A DNA stretch of 64,000 bases, from positions 1 through 64,000 of IMG/VR virus record IMGVR_UViG_3300030330_003356. One strand, 5' to 3'. Under the pieces are notes generated by a model. The model did no database searches. It was not told the origin of the DNA and worked only from the letters and a program-made list of their open reading frames with translations. Below are positions 5,744 to 48,528 of this stretch, piece after piece. A program made the translations under genes and the position numbers. The stretch's first letter is position 1. The number at the start of each line of letters is the position of its first letter. The stretch is from a virus (taxonomy: Duplodnaviria; Caudoviricetes).

Positions 5744-8700
5744 ATGATATCAACCGATTTTCAGCGAGTACAGATTCAGGACATCATTGAGTATCAATTA
5801 CCTGCATTTGTAAGGGATGACTTTCCTCTTGTTGGCGAATTTTTAAAGCAGTATTATATTTCTCAGGAATATCCTACTGCACCATCTGATATCATTCAAA
5901 ATATTGATGAATATGTAAAACTTGAAACTCTTCTAAGTGGTGAGGAAGAAACTCGTCTTGATATTGATATTGATTTTGATGCTACCACCATCAATGCAAC
6001 ATTTGATCTTTATAATGATCAGTTTGGTACTTATAAGTTTCCCGAAAGATACGGACTTATTCAGATTGATGATGAGGTAATATTATATACAACTAGAAGT
6101 AATTATCAGTTCCTTGGTTGTGTACGTGGATTTAGTGGTGTAACTGCATTTAGTGATAACGATGAAGAACTGACATTTACTAGTTCAGAAGCAACATCAC
6201 ACGTTCAAGGTGCTAAGATCGTTAATCTCAGTAACATCTTACTGAGAGAGTTTTTAGTTAAACTCAAGAAACAAATTACTCCTGGATTTGAAAGAAGAGA
6301 GATTAACTCTGAAGTTAATGAAAGACTTTTCTTATCAAGAGCAAAAGATTTTTACCAATCGAAAGGAACAGATGAATCTTTTAGAATTCTGTTTGCTGCT
6401 CTATATGGAGAAAAAGCAGAAGTTGTAAAACCAAAAGAATTTCTGTTTAGGCCTTCTGATGCGGAGTACAGAAAGACAAAAGATATTGTTGTTGAAGCAA
6501 TTGTTGGTGATCCAACAAAATTAAAAAATCAAACTTTATATCAAGATGCATTTCCTGAGTATGGAATTAATCAGGCATATGCCACAATTATTGATGCAGA
6601 AAAAATTCAAAGAGGATCTGATACTTTCTATCAACTAAGTGTTGACTTTGATTATAGTAAAGACATCGATCTTACTGGAGGAACTGTTTTAGGAGACTTC
6701 GCTGCTCATCCTAAAACTCAAAACACAGTTTTAGTGTCATCCGGATCATCAATTATTGATGTTGACTCTACAATTGGTTTTCCAGATAGAGGGCAAATAT
6801 TTGTTAAAGGGCAAAGTGGTATCCTTACATATAGATCCAAAACTACAAACCAGTTTTTTGGAGTTGGTTTAGCTAACACCACAACCTTTGGAACTAACTA
6901 CGAAATCACCGCTGGAAGTGATTTAAGATTAAACGTTACTGCATATGGTTTTGAGGGAATTAACCCCGTCTCAGTCGCTTCTAGCGATGCCTCAGCGGTT
7001 GGAATCGCTTCCACTTCAAAGATCGAAATAAGAATAGGAAATGTTCTTGGTAAGAATACAGTTTATGGTGATACCTCTTACTATACTAACGAAGATATTA
7101 TCAAAATAAAATCTTTAGGTATTAGCACATCATCGGCGTTAGCTAACAATTGGTTTGATAATGTTAGCCCTAAGTATGATGTAAAGCAACTTTCACTAAT
7201 TGACTCTTCCAACTTTACATATTCAATTACATTATTTGCGGATAGTATTCTTAGAATAGGTGACAAAGTAACTGTTATTCAATCCAATGGAGTTGGAAAA
7301 CAAGGAGTAGTTGTAGATATAACAGATGCTAAAACTTTCTCCTTCTCAAGAGCAGGTGAATTGGTTGGAAGTAACTTTAGTGTAAGAAGAGATATTCTTA
7401 AACCAGATGTAAGTAGCGTAAACTCAAATTATTCTTACATCGAAAACGCTTTTGCTAATGTTCAGAACACTTATGCAAAATACAATGGTGATATTTTAGT
7501 TACATCATCTTCAATTCCATCTTATCATGACACTCCTCTTGATTTTTATGACAGAAAAGTTTCTTTAGATGGAAGTTTTAGTGGAGAAACTTTTGATGTA
7601 TCAAAGAATCATGGTTTCGTAACTGGAGATAAAATTTATTATGAATCTTATGTCTATGCTGACGATATAGGACAAACCGTAGAAAGTAAATTTCCTGAGA
7701 TTGATCCAGGAGTATTTTACGTTAAGAAAGTAAATAATACTCAATTTAAAATTGCATCTAGTTTAACTAACCTTTTCAATAATAATTTTGTTTCTGTTTC
7801 TGGTATTGTAACAAGCAATTATTTCTGTGTAAATGATTTCTATAAAAAAGATTTAGAACATCAAAAACTTGTTAGAGAGTTTAAATCACCAGTCAATGAT
7901 GGTGGGACTCATAGAACATCTCCAGGCAAAACTGGAATGTTAGTTAATGGTGTTGAGATTCTTAATTACAAATCTGGAGACAGCGTTTACTTTGGGACAA
8001 TTAATAGTTTAACAGTGTCTGCTGGTGGTGATGGATATGACGTAATTAATCCTCCTATTTTATCAATCCAAGATTCAACAGGTATTGGTGCAACAGGACT
8101 CGTAAATGTAAAAGGTGAGTTAGATAGAATTGATGTCATTGATCCTGGATTTGATTATGTTACTAATCCAATTGTTACAATTTCTGGTGGTAATGGATCA
8201 GATGCTTCTGCTTTTGCCAATACTAAACTAGTTACCCACTCAGTATCTTTCTTCGCAACATCAGATAATCCTCAAGTTGGGTTATCTTCAAATACGATTG
8301 GATTCACTACATTCCATAAATTTAGAGAATCTGAAAAAGTAATTTACAAAACTGATGGACAAAGTGCTATTGGAGGTATCTCTGCTGATGCAATTTATTA
8401 TGTTAAGACAGTTGATACTAAAACTATAAAATTATTCCTTACCGAAGGTGATTCTATTACAGGTTTAAACACAGTTAGCTTATCATCTAATGGTGTTGGA
8501 GTTCATAGATTTGAATCGTTTGATAAGAAGAGAGTCCTTTCTGATGTAATTGTTAAATCTTCCGGATCAAACTATGAAAATAAAGAAAGAACATCTGGAA
8601 CAAGTGGAATCAATACATCTCTGAATCAAATTAATATCTCAAATCACGGATTTAAATCTGGTGATACAGTAACATATTCTGGAAATGCTTCAGGACTTAG

Positions 8701-11700
8701 TTCAGATCAAAATTACATTGTTACCGTAGTTGACTCTAATAATTTTAAATTGTCCTCAGTTGGTGTAGGAACAACTGCGAAACTCTTCTACTATAATACA
8801 AATCAATATGTTGATATCGAATCTGTAGGATCTGGATCTCATACATTTAATTATCCAACAATTACTGTTTCAATTTCTGGAGAGATTGGAATTAATACAG
8901 TAAGTGGACAAGACTTTACCGCCAAGATTCAACCTGTATTCAAGGGATCAGTAGAGTCGATTCACCTTACTGATAATGGTGTGGGATATGGTTCAAGTGA
9001 GATTATTAATTTTAACAAGCAGCCTTCATTTAAACTACTAAGTGGTAGAGATGCAGAACTTCTGCCTATCATTAATAATGGAAGAATTGAGCAAGTTCTT
9101 GTTACAAACAATGGTTTTGAATATAACTCTGCCCCACAATTGGTTGTAAACGGCGAGGGCAGTTTTGCAAAGTTAACTGCCGTTGTTAATAACGGACAGA
9201 TTGAAAGAGTTATTGTCGATAATCCAGGAATTAATTACACTGACACCACGACAGTAAGTGTGTTGTCAAATGGACTGGGCGCAAACTTAATTGCTGACAT
9301 AAATCAATGGACTATTAACCTCTTTGAAAAATACAAAGGTATTGTAAGTGATGATGATGGTATTCTTGATGTTGCTCTAAATGAAGATTATGGAATTCAG
9401 TACACTCACCTTTATGCACCAAGAAAATTAAGAGAAACGGTTTTTGGTAGAGTTTTATCGGGTGACATTAATTATGGATATAGTGACTTATCAAAAGGAA
9501 TCAAATATGGAGTTGCTGATCTTAGAATTGATGATACCAATCAAGAAATTGAAGCAAACTTCCACTCTCCTATAATAGGATGGGCATATGACGGCAACCC
9601 AATATATGGCCCATATGGATATGACACTAATACCGGTGGAACTGTTAGAGCACTTAAGAGTGGATACAGTTTAGTAGAATCATCAAATCGTCCTTCGCTT
9701 TCAAGCTGGGAAAATGGATTCTTCTGCGAAGATTACCAATTTACTGGTGACGGAGATCTTGATGAGCATAACGGTAGATATTGTATAACTCCTGATTTCC
9801 CTAATGGAGTATATGCATATTTTGCAACTATAAGTGATGGTACAGTTGCTGGTGATGGATCATTTGAAAACTTTAAATTGCCAGTGTTCCCATATTTTAT
9901 TGGCGATAAGTTTAAATCAAAACCAAATGAATTCAATTTCAAAAATGATTCATATCAAGAAAAATATGATATTGTAAGTGATATGTGGTTGAGAAATACC
10001 ACACCCTATGGATTAGTACAAGACAATGTGTCATATGAATATGTTACTCAACCATATAAAATATTTGATGAAGTAATTGATATTACATCTGCTTCATTAG
10101 GAACAATTGATAACGTTGGTATTATTACTGGTGGTAGTGGATATCAAGTTGGTGATAGAGTGGTATTTGAATCCTTACCTGGAGCAACTGATGCGAAGGC
10201 AAAGGTATCTAGAGTTGTTGGTAAAGTTATCACCGATGTAAGCGTTGAAACCTTAACATCATCTGAATTAGAAATTTCTCCTGTTGATTCATCTGGAAGA
10301 TATGTTGCTTTTGCACAATCTCCACATAATTTAGTAAACAGCAATTTAGTTTCCTTATCTGGATTTAATACTTCCTCAAACTTAACTAATAAGTCATATA
10401 GAATTGGCGTATCCACTGATTTCTATAATTTAACAACAGGTGTTAGCACTTCTGGTGTCACTGGTATTGTTACATACTTCTCAATTAATGGTGGAATAAT
10501 TAATCATGGACTTCTTTCAGTCAGAGAAAATGACATCTTTACATTAGGTTCTGAAAAAGTTCGTGTTCTTAATGTTGATAATTTAAATTCAAGATTAAGA
10601 GTTGAAAGAGCAGTAAGTAGCACGGTGTCTGCAGCTCATACTGCTACTACTTCACTTTCTGAAAACAGTCGTAAGTTTACTTTCATTTCAGAAAGAGAGA
10701 ATGAAGTTAAATTTGAACTGAACAAACAAGTATATTTTGATCCAAAAGAAACTTTAGGTGTTGGTACACTTAGTGGCGTTGGAATTGGTTCTACTGTATT
10801 TTTCTCAAATCCAGGTGCAGGAATCACTCAAAAATTTGTATCTACTCAAACTTTATTCTTACCCAATCACGAATTAAAGACTGGTGATGTTGTTGTTTAT
10901 AATAATGGTGGTGGACAGTCAGTTGAAGTAGATACAAATCCATCAGTAGGAACTACTTATAGAATTGCTAATAATACTCCATTGTATGTTGCTAAAATTA
11001 GTAATGATGTAATTGGAATACAAACATTTAAAGTTGGTATTGGTTCCACAGGAACATTTGTTGGTATTGCTGATACAACGATGAGTTCTGGATTGCTGTT
11101 CCTCACAGGTATTGGAACAGGAACAAAGCATAGCGTTAAAACAGTAAGAACAAATGTTGTAACTGCTGAATCTTCACGTAATACCGTCACTGTTGCTACC
11201 GCTTCAACTCATGGACTAACAATTGGTGATAAAGTTAATATGTCAGTTACACCTGGCATTACCACGACTGTTACTGTCAAGTACAATGATCACAATAGAA
11301 GAATTGTATTCAATCCTCTCGGATTTACAACTGCTGGTGTAAGCACTTCTCAAAATACGATTGAGATTTCAGATCATGGATTTAATACCGGCGATAAAGT
11401 AATTCTTGATTCTAGCCCTGCACCATCAGGACTGGAGGATCAGAAAATATACTATGTTTTCAAACTTTCCAAGGATAAAGTAAGACTTTGTGATTCAAAG
11501 TATCAAGTTGAAAGATTTAATCCCAATTTTGTCTCAATTGAGATTGCAAGAGAGGGAACATTATTACCCATCAATCCACCTGTAAATGTTTACAATGGTA
11601 ATACTATAATATTTGATCTAAGTGATTCATCTCTTTCATCTTTGAATGTATCCACACTGTATTCTGCTTTTGATATGAATCTCTATAGAGATTCTAACTT

Positions 11701-14700
11701 TACAGATGTGTTTGATGGATCTTTAAAAGACGATGATTTTGAAGTCACAAAATCCGGAAAAGTTGGAATTGATGCAAATGCAAAACTGACTCTAGTTGTA
11801 AATGATAATATTCCTCATAATATTTTCTACAAGTTCTCTTTAATAAATTCTGATTTTATTGAAGATGTCAAAAAAGAAATTGTAATTGATTACGAGGTAG
11901 ACGGAGCTAACAAAATTGATGTTGTTAACAGCACATATTCTGGTGAGTTCTCAGTAATTGGAGTTGGAACAACCGCAACCTTTAGTTATGATGTAGAAGA
12001 AAAACCAGAAAGAGGATCTTATACAAGATCAACTGGAGGATTATTGTATAACACTGACTCTACAAATGCATATGGTGGAATCGCTGATATCAATATCACT
12101 TATAAGGGTTCAAATTATAAGGAAGTAGTTGGAGTATCAACAATTGTTGGAATTGTAACAGGAACCGGGGCAGTTCTTGAACCATCCAGTAATACAATTG
12201 GTAGAGTTCTTTCTACTAAGATTGAAAATATCGGATTTGATTACCCAACTGATTTTACTATACGTCCTACCACTAATTTACCTGAAGTTCTTCTTCTTGA
12301 ATCACTGACATCATTTGAAGAAATTGGTATTACATCTGCAGGCAAAAATTATTCAATTGCCCCTAATTTAATTGTTCTTGATGGATTGACTGGCAAGCAT
12401 ATTAATGACGTAGATCTTTTCTATCGTCTTGGAGATCCAAAAGTAACTATTAGAAAAAATACTCGTGGACTTACCAACGTTACTCCAACAATTATTCCAA
12501 TCAGCAATACAAATGGTGTTGGAATCAATGATATTTCTTTCGATATTGCAACTAAAAAGGTAACAGTTGGTTTTGATACTGGATTTAGTGATCAGTCACC
12601 TTTTGCAGTTGGTGATAAAGTTCTAATTGAAAATGTTAGTGTGGGTGTTGGATCAACTGGTTCAGGTTATAATTCAGTTGATTATAATTATCAGTTATTT
12701 ACATTGACTGATGTAAATATTCCTCTAGGCGGAAATGTTGGCGTAGTTACTTTTAGTCTTTCCGGAATTATTGATGATAATCTTTATGCAGGTAATTATG
12801 ATTCTGTTAATTCTGCAGGAAGAATCATAAATCAAAGTTCTTTCCCTCAATTTGATATTTCTCTTAAGAAAAATGATTTCTTAATTGGAGAAAAAATTGT
12901 ATCTGATAGAGGTGACGGTACTGTTGATAGTTGGAATAATAGAATTGAACTTCTAAAAGTTTCTACATCAAGAGATTTTAGAGTTGGTGATTTAATCAAA
13001 GGACAGACATCAGGAACTCAAGGTACTGTTAAGTCGAAAATTGATTACAATTCTGATATTGAAACTGAATCTTCTTCGATTGTAGAAAAAGGTTGGAATA
13101 CGACTACTGGATTCTTAAATGATAATCAGCAAAGAATTCCTGATAACTTCTATTATCAGAATTTCTCTTATGCTATCAAATCAAAGATTCCTTTACAGAA
13201 ATGGGACGATACTGTAAGTTCTCTCAATCATACATCTGGATTCCTCAAGTTTAGTGACTTAATTATCGAATCTTCTGATGAAAGGATTGGTGGTGGTGCA
13301 TTTACTGATAATTTATCAACTATCTCCTTAACAGTAGACATTAGCCCTACAACAACTTACGGAAGTGGAAACTTTGGGGGAGGAATTAGTTTAAATTGCT
13401 ACCCTGCGTTTGATCTTGTAACAGAAAATTCTAAAACTGCCTCCGGCACAGTTTACTCTGATAGAATTTTCTTAGAAAATAGAGTTCTTACTGATTATTT
13501 TGAATCAGTGGGTAATAGAGTTCTTACCATTGATGACATTAGTGGACAATTTAATAGCGAAGAACGTCCTACTAGATTCAGCATTGTTAAGAAGTTCCCT
13601 GTTGAGCAAAGATCTAAGAAAATCTTAACGTTCGTTCGCGATAAACTTTACACTGGAGAGAGACAAGCATCTATTGTTACTCTTGTTCAAGATGGACAAA
13701 ATGCTGAAGTTTTAAATTATGGTAGAGTTGATAGTGTATTAGATCTCGGAAGTTTCGACTTTAACATTTCGGGAAGTGAGGGACAACTTCTTTTCTATCC
13801 TACTAAGTTTAGAAATAATAATTATAACATTTCTTATTGTAGTTTTGATCTTGATAATAGTATAACTGGCATTGGAACGTTTGCTTTAGGTGAAATATGT
13901 GATATTGAATCTACTCAAATTGACAATATTCCAGCAGGTAGTTCAACAACAATTGTAGGTATTGCATCTACATACAGATCTACCAAAGTTTTGGTTGAAA
14001 TAAACACCGACAATGGTGTTTTTGGATTTAACGAATTAAATGTAATTCATGATGGTACAACTGCAGAACTTTTAGAATATGGCGATCTTTCAACCGATCT
14101 TGGAAATACGGTATTAGGCATCGGAACTTACTCTGTTGATATGTCTGCCGGAGATATAAATGTAAACTTTACTCCAAACGCTGGATATGCAGTCACAGTA
14201 AACACTGTTAGAGTTTCAATGTCTAGCACCGAATCTGTTGGTGTTGGAACGACTATAATTGGTGCAGGTGGTGAGAATGTTGCTGAATTACAATCTTTCT
14301 ATACATCAATTGGATCCTCTGCTTCTCCTGGTATTCATACAATCGCAGAATATACTTGTGGTGGCCTTGATGATTATTCTGCAGCGTACTACCTTGTAAG
14401 TGTTGAAGATACGACAAATAATGAATATCAACTCACTGAATTGATTGTATTAAATGATAATGGTGGATCATATATTACAGAATATGGAACACTTACCACA
14501 GGAAGTGGAATTGGAACGTTTGATGCATTCATGGATCCATCAATCACTTATTTACGATACACTCCTCCAGCAAACGTTGATGTTGAAACAAGAGTTTTCC
14601 AACAGGCGATTCAATTAGTTCAAGTTGATGATACTCTTGATCACGAAATTGATTTAAACAATGCATCTGTAACGGCTGGATATGGATTCTATCAAGGAAC

Positions 14701-17700
14701 ATCTAATGATGTTAAGAGAGAGTTTGCACTTACTCATAATGGATTGCCAATCTTCAGCAGAAACTTTGATGGAAGTAACAGTGCGATTGTTGATGTTGAC
14801 ACAAATAAAATTACGATCCCTGATCATTTCTTTGTTACAGGAGAACCAGTAAGTTATTCAGTTGGTGTTAACACCACTGTTCGTATTGGTATCGAAACTA
14901 CATCATTCGCTGGTATTGGTAGTACTACTTTATTACCAACCAATGCACTTGTTTATGTAATTAAAGATAATGATTCAACTATTAGACTTGCCTCTTCTGC
15001 AACTAATGCAAACCTTTCAACACCTGTTGCAATTGGAATTACTAGTGTTGGTATTGGAACTTTCCATACATTTACATCGGATAAACAAAATACGAAATGC
15101 TTAGTTGCTCTTGACAACTACATTCAAAATCCAATTGTATCTACTGCAACGACAACCTCTATTGATAAAGAAATAGTTCTCGGTGATACCATCATTGAAA
15201 CAGTAGGTGTTACTTCATTCTATGCTGCAGATCTTATTCAAGTAGGATCTGAAATCATGAAGATTAATACTGTAGGTTTTGGAACAACTAACGGTATTTT
15301 GGTTGATCGTGGATGGATGGGAACAGGAATTCAAACTCATCAGGTTGGAGTTGCTGTAACTAAAGTTGATGGTGCGTATAACATTGTTAACAACACCATT
15401 AACTTCTATACTGCACCTAGAGGCCCGATTCCTATCGGATCAATCACAAATCCTCCTGATGAAAGAGATTGGACAGGTATCACTACATTCTCCACATTCC
15501 AGGGAAGAACTTTCTTAAGATCTGAACCCAAGAATAGTACAAATGATGCATACTATTCTAACTATGTTTTTGACAGCATTGCTGATCAATTCGATGCAAC
15601 CACCAAGACGTTCTCACTTAAATCTGAAAATCAAGATGTAGTTGGTTTCTCCACTAACAATGCAGTTGTGCTTGTAAATGGAATATTCCAAGGCCCTACT
15701 GGACAACTTGCGGTTGCACAAGATTATTCTTTGAGTGAGGGTTCTGGAATTAGTAGTATCACCTTTACCGGAACTGCAACATCAGTTGCTTATGATCCTA
15801 ACAATGCAAATATTCCTGTCGGTGGAATAATTGTTTCAGTCGGTTCAACTGGTGGACTTGGATATCAACCTCTTGTTTCTGCTGGAGGAACAGCGATTGT
15901 TTCCGCTGCAGGAACTATCACTTCTATCAGCATTGGAAATACTGGTTCTGGATATCGTTCTGGTATTCAAACCGTCAATGTCGGTGTCTATACATCATCC
16001 ACAGGAAGAACTGGTATTGAGTTTATTGGTACTGCTGCTGTTAGTAATGGACATATTGTGAGTGTTGCAATCACTAATCCTGGATCAGGATATTTGATTG
16101 GATCCGAACCTGTTGTTGTATTTGATGCACCTCTATCATACTCAAACATTCCTCTGGTATATTCAGATTCTTCTGTATCTGGATTTGGAACTGAGGCAAC
16201 TGTTGACATTGTAGTTGGACAGGGATCAAGCGTTATCGATTTTGAAATCAGAAATACTGGATATCGTTATGGACAAAATCAAACACTTACAATCGCCTCT
16301 GGCGGTGCAACTGGAATTCCTACTGATACAAACTTTGATTTTGAAGAATTCCAAATCACTATCGACAGAGTTGAAGCAGATAAATTCTCTGCTTGGCATT
16401 TTGGAGAACTTGAGCGTCTTGACAATATTGATTCTGAGTTTGATGGAGTCAAGAGACAATTTACTATTAAGAGAGACGGATCTCCTGTAACAATTAGATC
16501 TGCTACAGGATCAAACATCGATGTTCAATCAACACTTCTTATCTTTGTCAACGATATTCTTCAGGTTCCTGGTGGTTCATATACCTTTGATGGTGGTAGT
16601 GTAATTAACTTCTCAGAAGCACCAAAAGGCCCGTCTGCAGATGGTGCTTTCTCTGGAGACACATGTAAGGTTCTTTTCTATAAGGGATCTGGTGATATTG
16701 ATGTCACATTCCGCGATGTGCTTCAAACTGTCAAGGATGGTGATTTATTTACAATAAGAGGTGATGAAACCCTTGTACCCAATTCAGTTGATCAGGGTTC
16801 AAGATTAATTACTGAAATTATTTCCTCTGATACAGTAAAAACAAACGCATATTATGGAAGAGGAATAGATTCAAATCCAGATCATGCACGAACTGTCACA
16901 TGGTGTAAACAAACTGTTGATAAAGTAATTAATGGCAAAATTGTTAGTAAGTCTAGAGAACTAAATGAAGCACTGATTAATCCAAGAACAAACATCATTC
17001 AATCTGTGGGTATTGAATCAACAATGCTATTTGTTGAGAGTGTAATTCCATTCTTTAATCCTGATGATGAAAATCAGACTACCAAGAATGTTCAAACCAT
17101 CAGTCTTGTTTCGCAAAACAATATTGTAGCGGCAGCTGCTACGGCAGTTGTGTCTGTTGCTAATACAGTAGAATCAATCACAATTGGATTTGGTGGCACA
17201 GGTTATACATCTGCACCCTCAGTCACGATTGAGACTCCAGTGGGACTTGGAACGACTGCTAGAGCAACTGCAACCGCAACACTGACTGGTGATACAGTTT
17301 CTTCTATAACCGTCTCGACTCCAGGTGTTGGTTACACCAGAACATCTGTTCCTCAAGTTCTGATCGAAGCGCCTAAGTTAATTAAAGAAACAAATGAAAC
17401 AACACTTTATCAAGGTGACTTTGGTGATATTGTTGGATTGACTTCTACATCTGTTGGTGTCGCTTCTACAGGATTTGTAATGGACTTCTTTGTTCCTATT
17501 GATTCTTTCTTACGTGACACTAAAGTCGTTGGTGCTGCAGTTACTTTGAGTGACATTGCAGTTGGTGATTACTTTACAGTGAAGAACAGCAATGTTGGAA
17601 GTGGTGTTACATCACTTTATCAAACTGGTGGAACATTAGGAGTAACCACACAATTCCTTGATGCTGTATATGAGGTAGCAGCAGTATCTGTAGCACAAAC

Positions 17701-17950
17701 TGCAGTTGCTGGTGTTGGTATTACATATGTTAAGAGAGTGACTGTGAGTGTTGAAGATCTTGGTAATATCACTGGAATCGGACTTACAGAATTCTATGGT
17801 GAGTTCTCTTGGGGTAAAATTACATTAGGAAGTAGAACAAATGCAGCAGCGTTTGACGCATACCTCCTAAATGGCACATCCGGTATATCTACTGGTGCTG
17901 TCATCAATAGAGTCGAACCTCTGAAATTTGTAGGATACTCTACAACATAA
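5744..17950 (+). CDS. gp7: giant baseplate wedge initiator gp7 (4068 aa) with many accessory domains
   Basis: Lies between gp6 and gp8. N-terminal QLPAFVRDDFP..FLKQYY, KGTDESFRILF, and core DNFYYQNFSYAIKS...HTSGF. Confidence 0.88.
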   Translation: MISTDFQRVQIQDIIEYQLPAFVRDDFPLVGEFLKQYYISQEYPTAPSDIIQNIDEYVKLETLLSGEEETRLDIDIDFDATTINATFDLYNDQFGTYKFPERYGLIQIDDEVILYTTRSNYQFLGCVRGFSGVTAFSDNDEELTFTSSEATSHVQGAKIVNLSNILLREFLVKLKKQITPGFERREINSEVNERLFLSRAKDFYQSKGTDESFRILFAALYGEKAEVVKPKEFLFRPSDAEYRKTKDIVVEAIVGDPTKLKNQTLYQDAFPEYGINQAYATIIDAEKIQRGSDTFYQLSVDFDYSKDIDLTGGTVLGDFAAHPKTQNTVLVSSGSSIIDVDSTIGFPDRGQIFVKGQSGILTYRSKTTNQFFGVGLANTTTFGTNYEITAGSDLRLNVTAYGFEGINPVSVASSDASAVGIASTSKIEIRIGNVLGKNTVYGDTSYYTNEDIIKIKSLGISTSSALANNWFDNVSPKYDVKQLSLIDSSNFTYSITLFADSILRIGDKVTVIQSNGVGKQGVVVDITDAKTFSFSRAGELVGSNFSVRRDILKPDVSSVNSNYSYIENAFANVQNTYAKYNGDILVTSSSIPSYHDTPLDFYDRKVSLDGSFSGETFDVSKNHGFVTGDKIYYESYVYADDIGQTVESKFPEIDPGVFYVKKVNNTQFKIASSLTNLFNNNFVSVSGIVTSNYFCVNDFYKKDLEHQKLVREFKSPVNDGGTHRTSPGKTGMLVNGVEILNYKSGDSVYFGTINSLTVSAGGDGYDVINPPILSIQDSTGIGATGLVNVKGELDRIDVIDPGFDYVTNPIVTISGGNGSDASAFANTKLVTHSVSFFATSDNPQVGLSSNTIGFTTFHKFRESEKVIYKTDGQSAIGGISADAIYYVKTVDTKTIKLFLTEGDSITGLNTVSLSSNGVGVHRFESFDKKRVLSDVIVKSSGSNYENKERTSGTSGINTSLNQINISNHGFKSGDTVTYSGNASGLSSDQNYIVTVVDSNNFKLSSVGVGTTAKLFYYNTNQYVDIESVGSGSHTFNYPTITVSISGEIGINTVSGQDFTAKIQPVFKGSVESIHLTDNGVGYGSSEIINFNKQPSFKLLSGRDAELLPIINNGRIEQVLVTNNGFEYNSAPQLVVNGEGSFAKLTAVVNNGQIERVIVDNPGINYTDTTTVSVLSNGLGANLIADINQWTINLFEKYKGIVSDDDGILDVALNEDYGIQYTHLYAPRKLRETVFGRVLSGDINYGYSDLSKGIKYGVADLRIDDTNQEIEANFHSPIIGWAYDGNPIYGPYGYDTNTGGTVRALKSGYSLVESSNRPSLSSWENGFFCEDYQFTGDGDLDEHNGRYCITPDFPNGVYAYFATISDGTVAGDGSFENFKLPVFPYFIGDKFKSKPNEFNFKNDSYQEKYDIVSDMWLRNTTPYGLVQDNVSYEYVTQPYKIFDEVIDITSASLGTIDNVGIITGGSGYQVGDRVVFESLPGATDAKAKVSRVVGKVITDVSVETLTSSELEISPVDSSGRYVAFAQSPHNLVNSNLVSLSGFNTSSNLTNKSYRIGVSTDFYNLTTGVSTSGVTGIVTYFSINGGIINHGLLSVRENDIFTLGSEKVRVLNVDNLNSRLRVERAVSSTVSAAHTATTSLSENSRKFTFISERENEVKFELNKQVYFDPKETLGVGTLSGVGIGSTVFFSNPGAGITQKFVSTQTLFLPNHELKTGDVVVYNNGGGQSVEVDTNPSVGTTYRIANNTPLYVAKISNDVIGIQTFKVGIGSTGTFVGIADTTMSSGLLFLTGIGTGTKHSVKTVRTNVVTAESSRNTVTVATASTHGLTIGDKVNMSVTPGITTTVTVKYNDHNRRIVFNPLGFTTAGVSTSQNTIEISDHGFNTGDKVILDSSPAPSGLEDQKIYYVFKLSKDKVRLCDSKYQVERFNPNFVSIEIAREGTLLPINPPVNVYNGNTIIFDLSDSSLSSLNVSTLYSAFDMNLYRDSNFTDVFDGSLKDDDFEVTKSGKVGIDANAKLTLVVNDNIPHNIFYKFSLINSDFIEDVKKEIVIDYEVDGANKIDVVNSTYSGEFSVIGVGTTATFSYDVEEKPERGSYTRSTGGLLYNTDSTNAYGGIADINITYKGSNYKEVVGVSTIVGIVTGTGAVLEPSSNTIGRVLSTKIENIGFDYPTDFTIRPTTNLPEVLLLESLTSFEEIGITSAGKNYSIAPNLIVLDGLTGKHINDVDLFYRLGDPKVTIRKNTRGLTNVTPTIIPISNTNGVGINDISFDIATKKVTVGFDTGFSDQSPFAVGDKVLIENVSVGVGSTGSGYNSVDYNYQLFTLTDVNIPLGGNVGVVTFSLSGIIDDNLYAGNYDSVNSAGRIINQSSFPQFDISLKKNDFLIGEKIVSDRGDGTVDSWNNRIELLKVSTSRDFRVGDLIKGQTSGTQGTVKSKIDYNSDIETESSSIVEKGWNTTTGFLNDNQQRIPDNFYYQNFSYAIKSKIPLQKWDDTVSSLNHTSGFLKFSDLIIESSDERIGGGAFTDNLSTISLTVDISPTTTYGSGNFGGGISLNCYPAFDLVTENSKTASGTVYSDRIFLENRVLTDYFESVGNRVLTIDDISGQFNSEERPTRFSIVKKFPVEQRSKKILTFVRDKLYTGERQASIVTLVQDGQNAEVLNYGRVDSVLDLGSFDFNISGSEGQLLFYPTKFRNNNYNISYCSFDLDNSITGIGTFALGEICDIESTQIDNIPAGSSTTIVGIASTYRSTKVLVEINTDNGVFGFNELNVIHDGTTAELLEYGDLSTDLGNTVLGIGTYSVDMSAGDINVNFTPNAGYAVTVNTVRVSMSSTESVGVGTTIIGAGGENVAELQSFYTSIGSSASPGIHTIAEYTCGGLDDYSAAYYLVSVEDTTNNEYQLTELIVLNDNGGSYITEYGTLTTGSGIGTFDAFMDPSITYLRYTPPANVDVETRVFQQAIQLVQVDDTLDHEIDLNNASVTAGYGFYQGTSNDVKREFALTHNGLPIFSRNFDGSNSAIVDVDTNKITIPDHFFVTGEPVSYSVGVNTTVRIGIETTSFAGIGSTTLLPTNALVYVIKDNDSTIRLASSATNANLSTPVAIGITSVGIGTFHTFTSDKQNTKCLVALDNYIQNPIVSTATTTSIDKEIVLGDTIIETVGVTSFYAADLIQVGSEIMKINTVGFGTTNGILVDRGWMGTGIQTHQVGVAVTKVDGAYNIVNNTINFYTAPRGPIPIGSITNPPDERDWTGITTFSTFQGRTFLRSEPKNSTNDAYYSNYVFDSIADQFDATTKTFSLKSENQDVVGFSTNNAVVLVNGIFQGPTGQLAVAQDYSLSEGSGISSITFTGTATSVAYDPNNANIPVGGIIVSVGSTGGLGYQPLVSAGGTAIVSAAGTITSISIGNTGSGYRSGIQTVNVGVYTSSTGRTGIEFIGTAAVSNGHIVSVAITNPGSGYLIGSEPVVVFDAPLSYSNIPLVYSDSSVSGFGTEATVDIVVGQGSSVIDFEIRNTGYRYGQNQTLTIASGGATGIPTDTNFDFEEFQITIDRVEADKFSAWHFGELERLDNIDSEFDGVKRQFTIKRDGSPVTIRSATGSNIDVQSTLLIFVNDILQVPGGSYTFDGGSVINFSEAPKGPSADGAFSGDTCKVLFYKGSGDIDVTFRDVLQTVKDGDLFTIRGDETLVPNSVDQGSRLITEIISSDTVKTNAYYGRGIDSNPDHARTVTWCKQTVDKVINGKIVSKSRELNEALINPRTNIIQSVGIESTMLFVESVIPFFNPDDENQTTKNVQTISLVSQNNIVAAAATAVVSVANTVESITIGFGGTGYTSAPSVTIETPVGLGTTARATATATLTGDTVSSITVSTPGVGYTRTSVPQVLIEAPKLIKETNETTLYQGDFGDIVGLTSTSVGVASTGFVMDFFVPIDSFLRDTKVVGAAVTLSDIAVGDYFTVKNSNVGSGVTSLYQTGGTLGVTTQFLDAVYEVAAVSVAQTAVAGVGITYVKRVTVSVEDLGNITGIGLTEFYGEFSWGKITLGSRTNAAAFDAYLLNGTSGISTGAVINRVEPLKFVGYSTT

Positions 17951-17953
17951 CTG

Positions 17954-27245: not shown

Positions 27246-27396
27246 CAATTTATCTAAAAGTTTTGAATATACCAAATTAGCATCTGAGATAGATAGTTGT
27301 GATGATAGAGATACTTTGAGAAACATCGCAAAGTCATTTGTAAAACTTTATTATAAACAACAAGAGACTTTATCAGTAATAAACATAAATGGCTAA
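27220..27396 (+). CDS. 58-aa helical protein, possibly NblA-like (not in ORF track)
   Basis: Hand translation: MDPESIKLSNLSKSFEYTKLASEIDSCDDRDTLRNIAKSFVKLYYKQQETLSVINING; GGAGG SD at 27209-27213. The function call is recall-based. Confidence 0.6.
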   Translation: MDPESIKLSNLSKSFEYTKLASEIDSCDDRDTLRNIAKSFVKLYYKQQETLSVINING

Positions 27397-35342: not shown

Positions 35343-35675
35343 ATGGCACAATTAGCACTTAATAGATTCCAAACAGTAACACTTGAACTAACTGACTCAG
35401 AGCAGACAATGTACACTGCTCCGACTGGTTATACTGCCATTCTTCTGTATGCTCATGTTGCAAATGTTGGTTCGTCTGATGCAACAGTTACAATGAAACA
35501 TGCGAGATCTGGAACAGACACTGAGATTATCAAAGAAGCCAACGTTCCTACTAATGATGCATTCGTTCCACTAAGTGGAAAATTAGTTTTAGAAACTAGT
35601 GATGCGGTAAAGGTTACTGCAAGTGCAAACTCAACCCTTAAGTGTATCCTTAGTATCTTGGAGACAGCGACGTAA
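35343..35675 (+). CDS. small beta-rich putative structural protein
   Basis: 110-aa ORF; MYTAPTGYTAILL...GKLVLETSD pattern. Confidence 0.75.
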   Translation: MAQLALNRFQTVTLELTDSEQTMYTAPTGYTAILLYAHVANVGSSDATVTMKHARSGTDTEIIKEANVPTNDAFVPLSGKLVLETSDAVKVTASANSTLKCILSILETAT

Positions 35676-36040
35676 TGCCATATATCGTAGGTTCATTAAC
35701 AAAAACTAATTTAAATATGACTGGTGGTGTTGTTCAGTCGGGAGTGACGACAACCACCACTACAGATGAGACTGCGATTATTTCTTTATCAGCACCGAAA
35801 TATCAATCTGTTGAATTTAAGATACAAGTAACTGAATCTAGTTCTTATAATTCGACAATCGTAAGAGCGATGCATGATGGAACATCTGCATATGTTACTG
35901 AATATGGAACATTACAAGTTCCCTCAGGAATTGCAACATTTTCTGCAGATGTAAATGCTGGACAGTTGAGACTTTTAGCATATCCCACAACTTCTGGTTT
36001 GACAACTTTTAGCGTGATTTACACTGCATTAAATTCATAA
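35675..36040 (+). CDS. small putative structural protein, paralog of a gp7 internal domain
   Basis: MHDGTSAYVTEYGTL matches gp7 segments IHDGTTAELLEYGDL and LNDNGGSYITEYGTL. Confidence 0.75.
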   Translation: MPYIVGSLTKTNLNMTGGVVQSGVTTTTTTDETAIISLSAPKYQSVEFKIQVTESSSYNSTIVRAMHDGTSAYVTEYGTLQVPSGIATFSADVNAGQLRLLAYPTTSGLTTFSVIYTALNS

Positions 36041-39871: not shown

Positions 39872-42058
39872 ATGGCGACTCCTCAATTATCTCCTGGGAT
39901 ACTTGTAAGGGAGGTTGATCTTACCGTAGGAAGAGCTGATAATGTTCTTCAGAACAACGGTGCGATTGCTGGCCCATTTAGTCTGGGCCCTGTAGCTGAA
40001 GCAGTTGACATCACCACCGAAGAAGAACTTATTGAAGTATTCGGACAACCTATCTCTACAGATAGACATTACGAATACTGGATGACTGCATCCTCTTTCC
40101 TGTCATATGGCGGAAGACTTAAAGTCGTCAGAGTTGATGGCTCTAACCTTAACAATGCTAACGCTGGTGTAGGTATTGCATCAACTACTCTCAAGATTAA
40201 GAATTTTGATGACTATAATGCAAATTATAGTTCAGCAACAGACTTCTATTATGCAGGTAAAAACCCTGGAACTTATCTGAGTGATCTCAAAGTTGCAACG
40301 ATTGACGATTTTGGAGATCAAGTCATTGGTATTAACACCACTGATCTGGGTAACCTTGGCGCTACAATTGGTTTTGGTGTTACTTCAGTTCTGTCAGGTA
40401 CAGAAGCAGGAGTAGGAACCACTAAGACTATCGATGGACACCTTAAGGCAATCATCACTGGTGTTACCACCGACTCTACTAACGGAAATAGCAGCATCGT
40501 AGTTAAGATTACCTCTAGAGTATCTGGTGCTGGAACTGAAACTGCTCTTACTTATGTTCAATCTGATCCCAACAGATCTTTTGAACCTTCAGATACCCTG
40601 TTCTTCGTAAACAACTCTGGTATTAATACTGGATCAACAGGAACCGCAGGAACCGTTACCGACTGGTATGATGGACAAACATTAGGACTTACTAATGCTA
40701 CCGTCTTCTGGAAGGAAATCGCTCCCAAACCCGTTTCAAGTCAATATGTGGTTGATAGAAATGGTAAAGGTGATGGAATGCACGTTGTTGTCATCGATGA
40801 CAATGGAACAATCACTGGAGTAAAAGGTAATATTATTGAGAAGAATACCTTCATCTCAAAGGCATCTGATACTGTATCTGCACTTGCATCTCCTGAAAGA
40901 ACCTTCTATAAGGATTACCTTGCACAGGGTTCCAAATATCTTTATGCTGGTGGAAATGTTTCTGCTGCTGCAGATGGATTCCATGGAACAGAACCAGTTG
41001 CAACTGGATTCTCAACTTCCTTCACCCCATTCACAACTGCAGAAGGACTGTTTGGACAAGCGGCACAAGATGTAACCTTCAGTGCTATCGGTAATAAGAC
41101 TTATACTCTTACTAACGGTAAGGACTACAGTGGAACAGACAATAAAGGTATGGCTGCCTCTCTTGGCGATATTACCGCTGGTTATGAACTGTTCTCTAAC
41201 AAAGATGAGATTGAAGTTAACTTCCTCCTGATGGGCCCTGGTTGCACCACTGAGACAGAAACACAAGCGAAAGCACAAAAACTGATTGCTGTTGCTAATG
41301 GCAGAAAAGATTGTGTTGCATGTATCTCACCTGACAGATCAAATGTAGTTGATGTTGCTTCAACCACTGATCAAACAAATAATATCATTAGATTCTTCAG
41401 CGCACTGTCATCATCTTCATTCGCTGTCTTTGATAGTGGATATAAGTACACGTATGATAGATTTAACAATCAGTTCCGCTACATCCCAACTAATGGTGAT
41501 ATCGCAGGATTGATGGTTAGAACTGAGATTGATCAGTTCCCCTGGTACTCACCCGCTGGACAACAAAGAGGTGTCCTCAATAATGCGATCAAACTCGCAT
41601 ACAACCCCAACAAAGCACAGAGAGATTCGCTGTATGAAGCAAGAGTCAACTCTATCGTAACATTACCTGGAGTTGGAACTGTTCTTTACGGTGATAGAAC
41701 CGGACTGAACTTTGCATCTGCATTCGATAGAATAAATGTTCGTCGTCTCTTCCTTACAGTTGAAAAAGCACTGGAAGGACTTGCTAATGATCAACTGTTT
41801 GAGTTCAACGATGAGATCACCAGATCTTCCTTTACCAATGCAGTTGAACCTTTCCTTCGCGATGTTCAAGCGAAGAGAGGTTTGATTGACTTCCGAGTCA
41901 TCTGTGATAGTTCCAATAACACACCTGATGTTATTGATAATAACGAGTTCAGAGCAGACATCTTCCTGAAGCCCACCAAGTCAATTAATTATGTTACCTT
42001 GACGTTCGTTGCCACACGAACAGGTGTTGCTTTTGAAGAAGTGACTGGCAGAGTTTGA
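39872..42058 (+). CDS. gp18: tail sheath protein gp18
   Basis: LSPGILVREVD, WYSPAGQQRG, FDRINVRRLF, IFLKPTKSINYVTLTF. Confidence 0.97.
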   Translation: MATPQLSPGILVREVDLTVGRADNVLQNNGAIAGPFSLGPVAEAVDITTEEELIEVFGQPISTDRHYEYWMTASSFLSYGGRLKVVRVDGSNLNNANAGVGIASTTLKIKNFDDYNANYSSATDFYYAGKNPGTYLSDLKVATIDDFGDQVIGINTTDLGNLGATIGFGVTSVLSGTEAGVGTTKTIDGHLKAIITGVTTDSTNGNSSIVVKITSRVSGAGTETALTYVQSDPNRSFEPSDTLFFVNNSGINTGSTGTAGTVTDWYDGQTLGLTNATVFWKEIAPKPVSSQYVVDRNGKGDGMHVVVIDDNGTITGVKGNIIEKNTFISKASDTVSALASPERTFYKDYLAQGSKYLYAGGNVSAAADGFHGTEPVATGFSTSFTPFTTAEGLFGQAAQDVTFSAIGNKTYTLTNGKDYSGTDNKGMAASLGDITAGYELFSNKDEIEVNFLLMGPGCTTETETQAKAQKLIAVANGRKDCVACISPDRSNVVDVASTTDQTNNIIRFFSALSSSSFAVFDSGYKYTYDRFNNQFRYIPTNGDIAGLMVRTEIDQFPWYSPAGQQRGVLNNAIKLAYNPNKAQRDSLYEARVNSIVTLPGVGTVLYGDRTGLNFASAFDRINVRRLFLTVEKALEGLANDQLFEFNDEITRSSFTNAVEPFLRDVQAKRGLIDFRVICDSSNNTPDVIDNNEFRADIFLKPTKSINYVTLTFVATRTGVAFEEVTGRV

Positions 42059-44724: not shown

Positions 44725-45284
44725 TGGCACATCGTACAGTTGGTGCTGGACAAAGTATAACTACAAGTGGTAGTTCTGCTAAAAGTGATGCAATTGCTGT
44801 AAAATCTAGCGTTTTAAGAATTACCGCCAGAGATGAGGATGCACATATTGCTATTGGCACAGAACCAACAGCAACAGTGACAGATTATATTATTCTTGCC
44901 GGAACTAGTGAAACTTTGGGTGTTACTAAAGCATCTCAGAGAGTTAGAACTATTGAAAGTTCAGGCACAAAAACAATTGTCACTTGTCCCGAAGGCACTC
45001 AACAACCATTTGCCGTAGGAGACTGTGTTACTCTCGAAGCAAGTAATGCAGATAGTAACTGGACAACAGTTATTAGTCATGTCGGTGTTGATAGCGTTGA
45101 TTCAAGTGCAGATTTTAGTGGTTCTTTTAGCACTAAGGTAACTCTAAGTGCTGATACAAGTGGCATTTCTACAGATTTTGTTAGTAGTGACGCTACCCTT
45201 CGTAAATCGATCAAAGTAGGTGCTGTTGCTACTGGCGCTGGATCTATTTTCGTTCAACAAGTACAAATAACCGGAGTTGCCTGA
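44724..45284 (+). CDS. hypothetical beta-rich protein in the head module
   Basis: 186-aa ORF translationally coupled to both neighbours. Confidence 0.75.
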   Translation: MAHRTVGAGQSITTSGSSAKSDAIAVKSSVLRITARDEDAHIAIGTEPTATVTDYIILAGTSETLGVTKASQRVRTIESSGTKTIVTCPEGTQQPFAVGDCVTLEASNADSNWTTVISHVGVDSVDSSADFSGSFSTKVTLSADTSGISTDFVSSDATLRKSIKVGAVATGAGSIFVQQVQITGVA

Positions 45285-45934
45285 TGAAACTTATCAGAGA
45301 GGAAATCGAATCCGTCGAATTCATTGTCGAATCGAAAGGCGGTAAAAAACAACTTTATATTGAAGGTGTATTCCTTCAAGGAAACATTAAAAACCGTAAT
45401 GGTAGAATGTATCCTATGGAGACACTTCGCCGTGAAGTTGGTAGATATAACGAAAACCATGTTCAGGCAGGTAGAGCACTTGGTGAACTTGGACACCCTG
45501 ACGGCCCTACCGTTAACTTAGATCGTGTATCTCACAAGATTGTTTCTCTGAGAGAGTCTGGTTCTAACTTTATTGGTAAAGCGAAGATCCTAAACACTCC
45601 CATGGGTAAGATTGCAGGATCTCTCATTGATGAGGGCGTCAAACTTGGTGTTTCTTCTAGGGGTATCGGTTCATTAAAGATGACACGCGAAGGTGTCAAT
45701 GTTGTTGGTGATGATTTTATGTTAGCAACTGCTGCTGATATTGTTGCCGATCCTTCTGCTCCTGATGCATTTGTTGAGGGTATTATGGAAGGAAAAGACT
45801 GGGTATGGGATGGTGGTATTCTTCGTGAAAAATTTGCGGAGAAAACATATAGAGAGATTAACACTCTCGCTACTCAAAAGCAACTTGACGAGAAGAAGTT
45901 GGATTTATTCAACGATTTTCTCAATAACCTTTGA
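45284..45934 (+). CDS. gp21: prohead core protease gp21
   Basis: RALGELGHP, GVSSRGIGS, DIVADPSAPDA. Confidence 0.97.
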   Translation: MKLIREEIESVEFIVESKGGKKQLYIEGVFLQGNIKNRNGRMYPMETLRREVGRYNENHVQAGRALGELGHPDGPTVNLDRVSHKIVSLRESGSNFIGKAKILNTPMGKIAGSLIDEGVKLGVSSRGIGSLKMTREGVNVVGDDFMLATAADIVADPSAPDAFVEGIMEGKDWVWDGGILREKFAEKTYREINTLATQKQLDEKKLDLFNDFLNNL

Positions 45935-47142: not shown

Positions 47143-48528
47143 ATGTTCCAATCCGAACAGCTGCAGGAGAAGTGGGCACCCCTTCTTGAGTACGATGGAC
47201 TTGAGTCTATCAAAGATCCTCATAGAAAGGCTGTAACCGCTGTCCTGCTCGAAAACCAAGAAAAATTCCTGAAGGAGTCTTCCTCCTTTGAGACTGGTGG
47301 ATCCCTCCTGAGTGAGGCTGCTCCTACCAACTCAACCGGTTCTAGCGTAGACAACTTCGATCCCGTTCTGATCTCCCTGATCAGACGCTCCATGCCTAAC
47401 CTGATCGCTTACGATCTGGCTGGCGTTCAACCCATGAGCGGCCCCACTGGACTCATCTTCGCGATGCGTTCCCGCTATCAGAACCAGACTGGAACCGAAG
47501 CGTTCTACAACGAGCCTGATTCTGCATTCTCCGGACAGAACTTCGGACGCAACCTGGAAGGTGGCTTCTCCGATGGTACTGCTGGTATGGGTACTACCAG
47601 TCAGTCTGGTACTAATCCCTCCGTCCTGAACCCTGTTGGTTCTGCCAACTCCAACGCATATAACCTTGGACAAGGTATGCAGACTTCCGATGCTGAGGCA
47701 CTCGGAGATGCTGCTGCTAATGCCTTCAACCAGATGGCATTCAGCATTGAGAAGGTAACCGTTACTGCTAAGTCACGCGCCCTCAAAGCTGAGTACTCCC
47801 TGGAACTGGCACAGGATCTGAAAGCAATCCACGGTTTAAACGCCGAGGCTGAACTCGCCAACATCCTCTCTACTGAGATTCTGGCTGAGATCAACCGCGA
47901 AGTTATCCGTACTATCTACAAGGTTGCTGAGCAAGGTGCTGTTCAGAACACCGCTACCGCTGGTGAGTTCGATCTCGACATCGACTCCAACGGACGCTGG
48001 AGTGTTGAGAAGTTCAAGGGACTGCTGTTCCAGATCGAAAGAGACGCTAACGCGATTGCACAAAGAACTCGTAGAGGAAAGGGCAACACGATCCTTTGCT
48101 CTGCTGACGTTGCTTCTGCTCTCACTATGGCTGGTGTACTTGACTACACCCCCGCTCTGAACGCTAACCTGAACGTTGATGACACCGGTAACACCTTCGC
48201 TGGTGTTCTGCAAGGTAAGTATCGTGTATACATCGATCCTTATGCTGCTAACCTGACTTCAGGTAACGCAACCCCCGGTAACCAGTATTACGTTGTCGGT
48301 TATAAGGGTTCTTCCCCCTATGACGCTGGACTGTTCTACTGCCCCTACGTTCCCCTGCAAATGGTTCGCGCCGTTGGAGAGGACACCTTCCAACCCAAGA
48401 TTGGCTTCAAGACTCGCTACGGAATGGTAGCGAACCCCTTCGCTGAAGGAACCGAAGCACAACTGGGTGCCCTGAACGTTAATCAGAACCGTTACTACAG
48501 ACGTGTTGCTGTTAAGAACCTGATGTGA
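47143..48528 (+). CDS. gp23: major capsid protein gp23
   Basis: GVQPMSGPTGLIFAMR, KSRALKAEYSLELAQDLKAIHG, FYCPYVPL, FQPKIGFKTRYG. Confidence 0.99.
   Translation: MFQSEQLQEKWAPLLEYDGLESIKDPHRKAVTAVLLENQEKFLKESSSFETGGSLLSEAAPTNSTGSSVDNFDPVLISLIRRSMPNLIAYDLAGVQPMSGPTGLIFAMRSRYQNQTGTEAFYNEPDSAFSGQNFGRNLEGGFSDGTAGMGTTSQSGTNPSVLNPVGSANSNAYNLGQGMQTSDAEALGDAAANAFNQMAFSIEKVTVTAKSRALKAEYSLELAQDLKAIHGLNAEAELANILSTEILAEINREVIRTIYKVAEQGAVQNTATAGEFDLDIDSNGRWSVEKFKGLLFQIERDANAIAQRTRRGKGNTILCSADVASALTMAGVLDYTPALNANLNVDDTGNTFAGVLQGKYRVYIDPYAANLTSGNATPGNQYYVVGYKGSSPYDAGLFYCPYVPLQMVRAVGEDTFQPKIGFKTRYGMVANPFAEGTEAQLGALNVNQNRYYRRVAVKNLM

Follow-up and report, generated by a model that had tools for sequence, protein, structure and literature searches.

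A clade-specific G-[IVLM]-[GA]-[ST] motif in virion proteins of T4-like cyanophages: candidate strand/loop element or glycosylation sequon

Described systems and the locus under study

Sugar addition by virus-encoded enzymes, and Ser/Thr modification at short repeated motifs, have been described in several settings. Freeman et al. (Cell Host Microbe, 2023) reportedly showed by experiment that mycobacteriophage virions are glycosylated by phage-encoded glycosyltransferases, placing the glycans in the C-terminal regions of capsid and tail-tube subunits, and the protein A197 of Sulfolobus turreted icosahedral virus (STIV) is proposed to glycosylate the STIV capsid protein. In bacteria, the autotransporter heptosyltransferases Aah and TibC modify Ser/Thr of the beta-helix repeats of AIDA-I and TibA, and the general O-glycosylation sequon of Bacteroidetes is D-(S/T)-(A/I/L/V/M/T). 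Here we analyse the short motif G[IVLM][GA][ST], which recurs in the virion proteins encoded by 64,000 nucleotides of the IMG/VR record IMGVR_UViG_3300030330_003356 (positions 1 to 64,000, hereafter the window), together with a nearby gene for a predicted glycosyltransferase (GT). The window is part of a T4-like cyanomyovirus whose nearest relatives are the Synechococcus phages Bellamy and S-SM2.

Like the mycobacteriophages, the window phage is a tailed phage with its own GT and with virion surface proteins as proposed acceptors; the window case, however, is a prediction from sequence, the tail tube has no site and the capsid protein one, and the motif is carried by proteins of the baseplate, fibres, neck and sheath. 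A197 (PDB 2c0n) is likewise a small single-domain viral enzyme of the GT-A fold with a DxD-type motif, but the similarity is remote, the host is archaeal and the acceptor of A197 is only inferred. With Aah and TibC the locus would share a cytoplasmic enzyme and repeated short motifs with Ser/Thr on beta-rich surface protein, although the enzyme fold and the sugar are different and the regular 19-residue repeats of one protein contrast with scattered sites in many. The Asp that precedes Ser/Thr in the Bacteroidetes sequon has no counterpart in the window motif, where this residue is G or A by definition; D is not enriched there either (5 observed, 3.1 expected).

The closest structural parallel is found in fibres with S74/MAT domains, in which a motif of the type R-I-T-S...V-G-I-G-T forms the capping loop of a trimeric beta-helix and whose capping-loop consensus was printed as V-G-G/N-pi-x-x-P-x-x-x-L (PMC10769870). 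In the aligned fibre sequences a hydrophobic residue follows V-G. The likeness to these loops (Bd3182, Bd2133 PDB 8OND; 8OML) thus lies in V-G-hydrophobic-G-small (T/S) at a strand-to-loop transition, and the core V-G-hydrophobic-[G/N]-small residue is present in the window consensus V-G-[IVL]-[GA]-[TS].

A short linear element in the virion proteins

Matches to the strict motif G[IVLM][GA][ST] and to a relaxed form, G-h-x-[ST], were counted in 19 virion open reading frames (ORFs; 13,342 aa) and 21 non-virion ORFs (6,407 aa), with expectations derived from the composition of each protein. The virion ORFs hold 39 strict matches against 7.1 expected. Shuffling the virion proteins within windows of 40, 20 and 10 aa gave 8.6, 9.2 and 9.8, respectively, and the maximum among 400 local shuffles was 21; composition does not explain the motif, as all controls lie far below the observed count. 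The non-virion ORFs hold one match against 1.11 expected. Enrichment is spread over all four positions (G 5.5x; I 8.9x and V 5.4x; G 5.9x and A 4.9x; T 6.8x and S 4.1x), and an unbiased scan of 3-, 4- and 5-mers in the virion proteome ranked GVG, GVGT, GIGST, GVGTT and VGVGT highest. The extended consensus is [ST]-S-V-G-[IV]-[GA]-[TS]-T-[AT], with the core V-G-[IV]-[GA]-[TS]-T adding one residue on each side of the motif and none beyond. Synonymous codons are used at the sites much as they are elsewhere in these genes, which places the signal at the protein level; a DNA-level repeat or recombination signal is ruled out. The motif is a real, clade-specific short linear element, and our literature search on the motif words and on cyanophage virion glycosylation returned no relevant description.

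The observation of the initial annotation, a motif recurring in most structural proteins and by eye essentially absent from gp17, UvsW, gp46, gp47, gp44, gp45 and RegA, is confirmed, and every example it cited was located no more than 6 nt from the position it gave. Its dozens of sites in gp7 are reached under the relaxed motif and reduce to 17 under the strict one. The sites it named in gp14, gp15, gp23 and ORFs 27389 and 35675 exist, but as single matches they are not significant (p 0.06-0.3), as is also the case for the single match in gp22. Its term "virion-wide" was an overstatement: baseplate, fibre, neck and sheath proteins carry the motif, but the inner proteins (tube, portal, gp6, gp13) have no matches, and no strict match occurs in gp6, gp13, gp19, gp20 or gp25 of the window.

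Carriers of the motif in the window, with the positions of sites.
5744..17950, + strand: gp7-like giant baseplate protein, 4,068 aa; main carrier, 17 strict sites against 2.6 expected
7001, 8762, 10757, 10781, 11036, 11108, 11960, 12644, 13868, + strand: first-G codons of strict sites in the gp7-like gene
13958, 14117, 14240, 14507, 14912, 15050, 17243, 17456, + strand: remaining first-G codons of strict sites in the gp7-like gene
17980..19539, + strand: gp8 baseplate wedge protein; 2 sites (18652, 19135) against 0.2 expected
19546..27006, + strand: DUF4815 (VrlC-like) structural protein; 7 sites against 1.2 expected
27389..27808, + strand: standalone S74-chaperone-like ORF, 139 aa (phrog_3304, L-shaped tail fibre assembly); one weak C-terminal site, G-I-A-T
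28673..30070, + strand: gp14 neck protein; one site (29648) in a C-terminal add-on repeat module
30099..31106, + strand: gp15; one site, S-V-G-I-A-T-A at 30393, unique to the window phage
31565..35341, + strand: fibre-like protein, 1,258 aa, with matches to tail-fibre phrogs; 3 sites against 0.7 expected
35675..36040, + strand: gp7-like paralogue, 121 aa; free-standing copy of gp7-like residues 2735-2928 with the homologous site kept
39872..42058, + strand: gp18 tail sheath; sites 40172, 40409 and 41669, 3 against 0.5 expected
47143..48528, + strand: gp23 major capsid protein; A-G-M-G-T-T at 47584, 1 against 0.24 expected, not significant alone
45284..45934, + strand: gp21 prohead protease; match S-S-R-G-[IVLM]-G-S, not part of the phenomenon
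Protein residues gp7-like 3740-4007, gp14 175-465, gp8 211-333 and ORF 31565 1012-1236: repeat module of about 45 aa

Outside the gp7-like protein the sites lie mostly in variable or added parts. Both gp8 sites fall outside the T4 gp8 core (the Pfam Phage-Gp8 match spans residues 129-190 only), at positions that hold other residues in GT-lacking orthologues. The full V/I-G-x-G-[ST]-T sites of the DUF4815 protein (21934, 25147, 25870) are common to Bellamy and in part to S-CAM9, and are replaced by unrelated residues or gaps in syn9 and P-SSM4. The gp15 site occupies a variable loop with unrelated residues in Bellamy and all other phages compared. Of the gp18 sites, two are in an outer insertion that varies and the third is in the conserved C-terminal domain; solved sheath proteins could not be aligned to residues 92-427, and gp18 of syn9, P-SSM4 and T4 has no motif match. 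At the gp23 site the relaxed forms A-G-F-G-S-T and V-G-F-G-T-T are kept in Bellamy and ACG-2014f, and the two matches in T4 gp23 are unrelated to it. The Bellamy counterpart of the fibre-like ORF 31565 has 9 matches against 1.0 expected, and the site S-G-I-A-T-F of ORF 35675 (35927) aligns with S-G-I-G-T-F at residue 2922 of the gp7-like protein. A repeat module of about 45 aa ("G-x-V-x-S-I-T-V...G-x-G-Y-t-s-a-P-x-V-t-I") is added to the T4-like cores of four virion proteins; its part "G-x-G-Y...P-x-V-x-I" in gp14 is common to the gp7-like protein, gp8 and ORF 31565, and modules homologous to the gp7-like protein hold four of the sites outside it. It was the only shared module found when the virion proteins were compared with each other by BLAST and accounts for these four sites; long internal repeats carrying the motif were rejected, as the gp7-like protein showed no self-repeats. 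The gp21 match was likewise discarded as a motif instance, because it is conserved in every T4-like phage compared, T4 included. It gives a spurious match in every phage.

Distribution among phages and the glycosyltransferase gene

For comparison, the homologous block was fetched for each phage, and the absence of the GT was verified on whole records. Counts in the gp7-like or giant protein follow.
Bellamy: GT homologue present; 36 observed, 3.0 expected
S-CAM9: GT homologue present; 20 observed, 2.4 expected
P-SSM2: GT homologue present; 16 observed, 3.2 expected
ACG-2014f: GT homologue present; 10 observed, 2.0 expected
syn9: GT homologue absent; 2 observed, 2.6 expected
P-SSM4: GT homologue absent; 2 observed, 2.6 expected
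S-PM2: GT homologue absent; 3 observed, 1.1 expected
P-HM1: GT homologue absent; 0 observed, 3.1 expected
S-CAM1: GT homologue absent; 0 observed, 1.3 expected

T4, which has no GT homologue, shows no enrichment, its 4 matches being dispersed over many proteins. P-HM1 has the same gene order and a gp7 of 4,446 aa (8130-21470 of the fetched stretch) with zero matches (Poisson p about 0.04), which could reflect chance or mild avoidance. All 35 metagenomic relatives from IMG/VR with long gp7-like fragments show a 4-14x excess, and the GT is present in every IMG/VR relative with enough upstream sequence. Summed over the giant proteins, V-G-[IVL]-x-[ST] is enriched 4-15x in GT-bearing phages and 0.3-1.6x in GT-lacking ones. 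The expected co-occurrence of motif and GT was thus found, with enrichment in the five GT-bearing phages and 35 loci and in none of the six GT-lacking phages. In this lineage V-G-[IVL]-[GA]-[TS]-T exceeds expectation four- to tenfold in proteins of the outer tail, baseplate and neck. For DUF4815, gp18, gp8, gp14 and gp15, the sites of the window phage, Bellamy and S-CAM9 are unrelated residues or gaps in syn9, P-SSM4 and T4. By our own arithmetic, core proteins are enriched about 5x in the window phage, 3.7x in Bellamy, 5.7x in S-CAM9, 2.4x in P-SSM2 and 0.65x in ACG-2014f.

In a tree of the DUF4815 protein the five GT-bearing phages form one clade (98% SH-aLRT) and one change suffices, so that the co-occurrence of motif and GT amounts to a single event of shared ancestry. 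No alignment was obtained between the motif-rich middle of the gp7-like protein and the giant proteins of phages without the GT; this middle part was found in 91 phage records, all of the same clade, against 104 for the GT and 533 for gp8. The S74-chaperone-like ORF 27389 was considered as a co-varying partner and excluded as a cause of the motif, since homologues are also present in P-HM1 and S-CAM1, which have neither GT nor motif excess. ORF 27389 is fused to no fibre, and homologues of this S74 intramolecular chaperone-like protein occur in 112 phage records, a distribution close to that of the GT, including Pelagibacter phage HTVC008M.

Two features bear on the GT.
1622..2398, + strand: remote GT-A-fold glycosyltransferase (phrog_1574), candidate modifying enzyme, recognised by remote homology
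1570..1598, + strand: perfect sigma-70-type promoter TTGACA-17-TATAAT, 24 nt upstream of the GT start codon

ORF 1622 alone found no match in direct searches of Pfam, NCBIfam or PDB. It belongs to phrog_1574 and weakly matches a glycosyltransferase phrog (1.4e-6), and its ESM Atlas clusters bear glycosyltransferase names. In an alignment of 53 relatives (29-49% identity) D109 and D111 are invariant and S110 is nearly so, within W-I-D-S-D; the family profile matches PDB 2c0n_A (A197 of STIV, GT-A) with E=2.4e-7 over profile positions 37-124 only, Pfam Glycos_transf_2 (PF00535) is matched by 18 of the 53 relatives, and the name under which IMG lists relatives is GT2 family glycosyltransferase. 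Fusions with TPR repeats or with an FkbM methyltransferase occur among the relatives. These remote matches support the prediction of a GT-A glycosyltransferase made in the initial annotation, even though the ORF itself goes unrecognised by Pfam and NCBIfam. The family is large and viral (1,647 clusters at E<=0.001), has 2,411 relatives in marine metagenomes at E<=0.001, and within the clade the GT is 73-98% identical, far above the conservation of gp6 or the gp7-like protein. Relatives of 37-50% identity lie on the giant-virus-like JGI contig Ga0643554_000253, beside a second GT2 and genes for a PI3/PI4 kinase, ATG8, SET and rhodopsin, and on one unrelated phage contig; the family is therefore broadly viral. 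Neither of these two contigs has virion genes next to the GT, and the 20 kb examined showed no motif excess.

The GT lies two genes upstream of gp25 on the same strand; the initial annotation had noted its place just upstream of the structural block. No other sequence on the + strand of the 64 kb fits the sigma-70 consensus TTGACA-17-TATAAT at all 12 positions, and a promoter with at least 10 of 12 matches stands at the same distance in 35 of 36 T4-like loci with the GT. T4 early promoters have been treated as sigma-70 promoters (PMC3037559). The GT thus probably belongs to the early genes, bordering the late block, and is not a member of the structural operon, and the conservation of its promoter suggests strong early expression. 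An early-type promoter of its own weakens the argument from synteny, although the enzyme could still act on late proteins. The T4 late promoter TATAAATA is matched twice in the window, where chance would give 4.1, and neither match is near the GT or the baseplate genes.

A structural reading and its rivals

The position of the sites within folds was studied in AlphaFold2 (AF2) models of gp7-like residues 1550-2350 (35-sequence alignment, pLDDT 78.6) and 2650-3250 (31-sequence alignment, pLDDT 82.8). Both models are all-beta chains of short strands arranged in hairpins and sandwiches, with no beta-helix, and 10 of 13 strict sites are centred within one residue of a strand boundary. Two arrangements occur: in one, V-G-I closes a strand and G-T-T makes the turn; in the other, the loop contains G-I and the following strand opens with G-T-T. 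Across 36 gp7-like orthologues (36-79% identity) the sites form 69 clusters, of which 23 are occupied in at least 8 sequences and 24 are singletons, and about 18-23 sites hold their position. Among the words at the 18 sites with the best conservation, 83% retain G0 and 85% have S/T at position 4, and the relaxed variants G-I-N-T, G-V-S-T, G-I-E-T and G-F-G-T fill the same columns. A Foldseek search with the 1550-2350 model gave nothing useful. The 2650-3250 model (window 13691-15493) gave local likenesses with probability 1.00 to T4 gp9 (1qex), the Klebsiella phage KP1 baseplate protein (9f4a_LA) and the AM24 tailspike (5w5p), and a part of it resembles T4 gp9 and tailspike head-binding domains. 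The fetched stretches of this clade hold no separate gene annotated as gp9 or gp10, which are present in syn9 and P-SSM4; together with the gp9-like fold, this suggests that the giant gp7-like protein may have absorbed the gp9/gp10 modules. The gp7-like protein also contains a YHYH domain (window 9545-9832, residues 1268-1363, E=5e-23) and a sub-threshold match to an endosialidase beta-barrel (8603-8752, residues 954-1003), directly before the conserved site at residue 1007.

The same word occurs outside the T4-like phages. S-TIM5, which is not T4-like, has a GT homologue 52-55% identical, and two of its fibre proteins are enriched (8 observed against 1.4 expected and 6 against 1.6). Its word is embedded in the repeat R-I-T-S-x-G-N-V-G-I-G-T-x-x-P-x-x-K-L; one of the fibres has a C-terminal Peptidase_S74 domain and can be aligned to two solved fibres of Bdellovibrio, 8OND and 8OML. 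The S-TIM5 stretch holds 12 words of the capping type and 19 strict matches.

We tentatively favour, at a little less than even confidence, the reading of the motif as a structural loop element and not a recognition site. Gly-x-Gly would provide a tight, flexible turn, with the beta-branched Val/Ile and Thr ending or starting the flanking strands, and the element would be placed where strand and loop meet in variable, add-on, beta-rich parts of the virion, above all in the gp7-like protein. The first half of the motif matches the S74/MAT capping-loop motif. It may already have been present in the ancestral gp7-like protein of the clade and may have multiplied through duplication and sharing of modules among the gp7-like protein, gp8, gp14, ORF 31565 and ORF 35675, arising also in loops of DUF4815 and gp18 in the sub-lineage of the window phage, Bellamy and S-CAM9; the neighbouring GT-A gene would then be a co-inherited early gene with another substrate. 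We favour this because V-G-I-G-T builds repeats in two S-TIM5 fibres homologous to 8OND and 8OML, most modelled sites lie near a strand boundary, relaxed forms occupy the same columns, as expected of a fold element, and four of the sites outside the gp7-like protein lie in modules homologous to it. The link between GT and motif is moreover one evolutionary event, the motif-rich region being likewise restricted to the clade, the GT is served by a sigma-70-type promoter of its own, and the core virion proteins of ACG-2014f are not enriched although it has the GT.

Several observations weigh against the structural element. The same hexapeptide appears in the unrelated folds of DUF4815, gp18, gp8 and gp15, in loops where GT-lacking orthologues differ, which a fold element would not readily explain, and the equally giant beta-rich proteins of P-HM1, syn9, P-SSM4, S-PM2 and S-CAM1 are without enrichment, which it does not explain. 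Closeness to strand boundaries does not differ significantly from that of random positions (p=0.21), since strands are so dense in the gp7-like protein, and anchored logos of 99 gp7-like sites show no conservation past -1 and +4. The capping-loop tail x-x-P-x-x-x-L (with Pro at position +6 and Leu at +10, counted from the first Gly) is not found in the window, which has a second Thr instead: P stands at +6 in 0 of 37 window matches in ORFs of at least 150 aa and in 0 of 58 in Bellamy, and in the 99 gp7-like sites the six residues most often seen at +6 do not include Pro. S74/MAT fibres are also beta-helices, unlike the hairpins and sandwiches of the window models, and no window protein matches the solved structures by sequence, the gp7-like protein having no PDB match.

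The main competitor, possible but in our judgement rather unlikely, is the O-glycosylation sequon put forward in the initial annotation, by which the GT-A enzyme of ORF 1622 would add a sugar to Thr/Ser of V-G-[IVL]-[GA]-[TS]-T at exposed strand/loop junctions of virion proteins that are already folded. On the same doubtful footing, sugars set by this early-expressed enzyme would coat the outer baseplate, fibres, neck and sheath of a widespread marine clade of T4-like cyanophages, and the coat could shield the virion from proteases or grazers, change adsorption or stabilise proteins; that selection steadily adds new sequons to exposed loops we hold to be no less uncertain. The proposal came through the composition and co-occurrence checks, and it draws on a strict co-occurrence in which five isolates and all informative IMG/VR loci have both GT and enrichment and six GT-lacking phages have neither, on the hydroxyl residue being kept at conserved sites, and on new sites arising in variable loops of unrelated proteins (the 24 gp7-like singletons, the unique gp15 site). 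The high conservation of the GT relative to gp6 and the gp7-like protein, A197 as its nearest solved relative, the fusion of some relatives to TPR repeats, which are protein-binding modules, and the joint presence of GT and V-G-I-G-T-rich fibres in S-TIM5 point the same way. Yet the S-TIM5 sites are explained by a repeat also found in bacterial fibres, the GT link among T4-like phages is a single phylogenetic event, and the early-type promoter does not suit late co-expression with virion genes. ACG-2014f, with the GT and core proteins at 0.65x, speaks against it as well, as do GT relatives in other viral settings without nearby motif excess and the lack of motif depletion in non-virion proteins, a comparison of low power (1 against 1.1 expected).

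Clade restriction and convergent gain fit equally a recognition or docking site for some other partner specific to the clade, for instance an assembly chaperone, a protein that decorates or cements the virion, or a ligand on the host surface that many outer loops would touch, and small clade-associated ORFs that might supply one lie in the block (2582-3235, 35343-35675, 35675-36040). We nevertheless regard docking as improbable: the sole partner tested, the ORF 27389 chaperone, is also present in motif-poor P-HM1 and S-CAM1, and a hydrophobic, glycine-rich hexapeptide at strand ends would make a poor docking epitope. To an artefact of composition or low complexity in G/T/V/I-rich beta proteins we give virtually no credence. 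The reversed word [ST][GA][IVL]G is itself mildly enriched (1.5-2.7x) in the giant proteins of the clade, so local composition contributes some of the excess, but the forward motif reaches 3-11x there against 0.5-1.2x in giants of similar composition from GT-lacking phages, and 10-aa shuffles yield 9.8 matches where 39 are observed; the artefact is thereby refuted.

T4-like cyanophages are among the most abundant ocean viruses, and the GT of this clade is very common in marine metagenomes. If the motif were a sequon, these virions would bear a coat of sugars with possible effects on host range, adsorption, decay and grazing. Such a glycosylation system would be without precedent in cyanophages and the first of any phage in which a sequon can be recognised, and glycosites in phage proteins could then be predicted by a sequence rule. 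If the motif is structural, it would offer a compact strand/loop signature for parsing giant, otherwise unannotatable baseplate proteins of 4,000-5,000 aa and would show that the capping-loop word of fibres is reused outside beta-helices. Cultured members of the clade exist (S-SM2, Bellamy, S-CAM9, P-SSM2), as do GT-lacking controls (Syn9, P-HM1, S-PM2), and ORF 35675, with 121 aa and one site, is a convenient small test substrate.

At the 5' end of the window the gene order is small ORFs, ORF 1622-2398, ORF 2582-3235, gp25, gp6 and the gp7-like gene (4,068 aa; 5744-17950), followed by gp8, the DUF4815 protein (2,486 aa), the standalone S74-chaperone-like ORF 27389, gp13, gp14 and gp15. After gp15 come the small terminase subunit, the fibre-like protein 31565 (1,258 aa), two small ORFs, a 611-aa ORF and the large terminase subunit, and then gp18, gp19, gp20, gp21, gp22, gp23 and the replication genes. 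ORF 2582-3235 (217 aa, phrog_3704), between the GT and gp25, has no match in Pfam, NCBIfam or PDB and no convincing ESM Atlas neighbour; it is called "ferredoxin" or "dioxygenase" in related records. Among solved structures, PDB 9euf chain 0 ("DUF4815 domain-containing protein / ORF65", 1,152 aa, E=1e-34) is related to the DUF4815 protein of the window and could help to place that protein within a baseplate.

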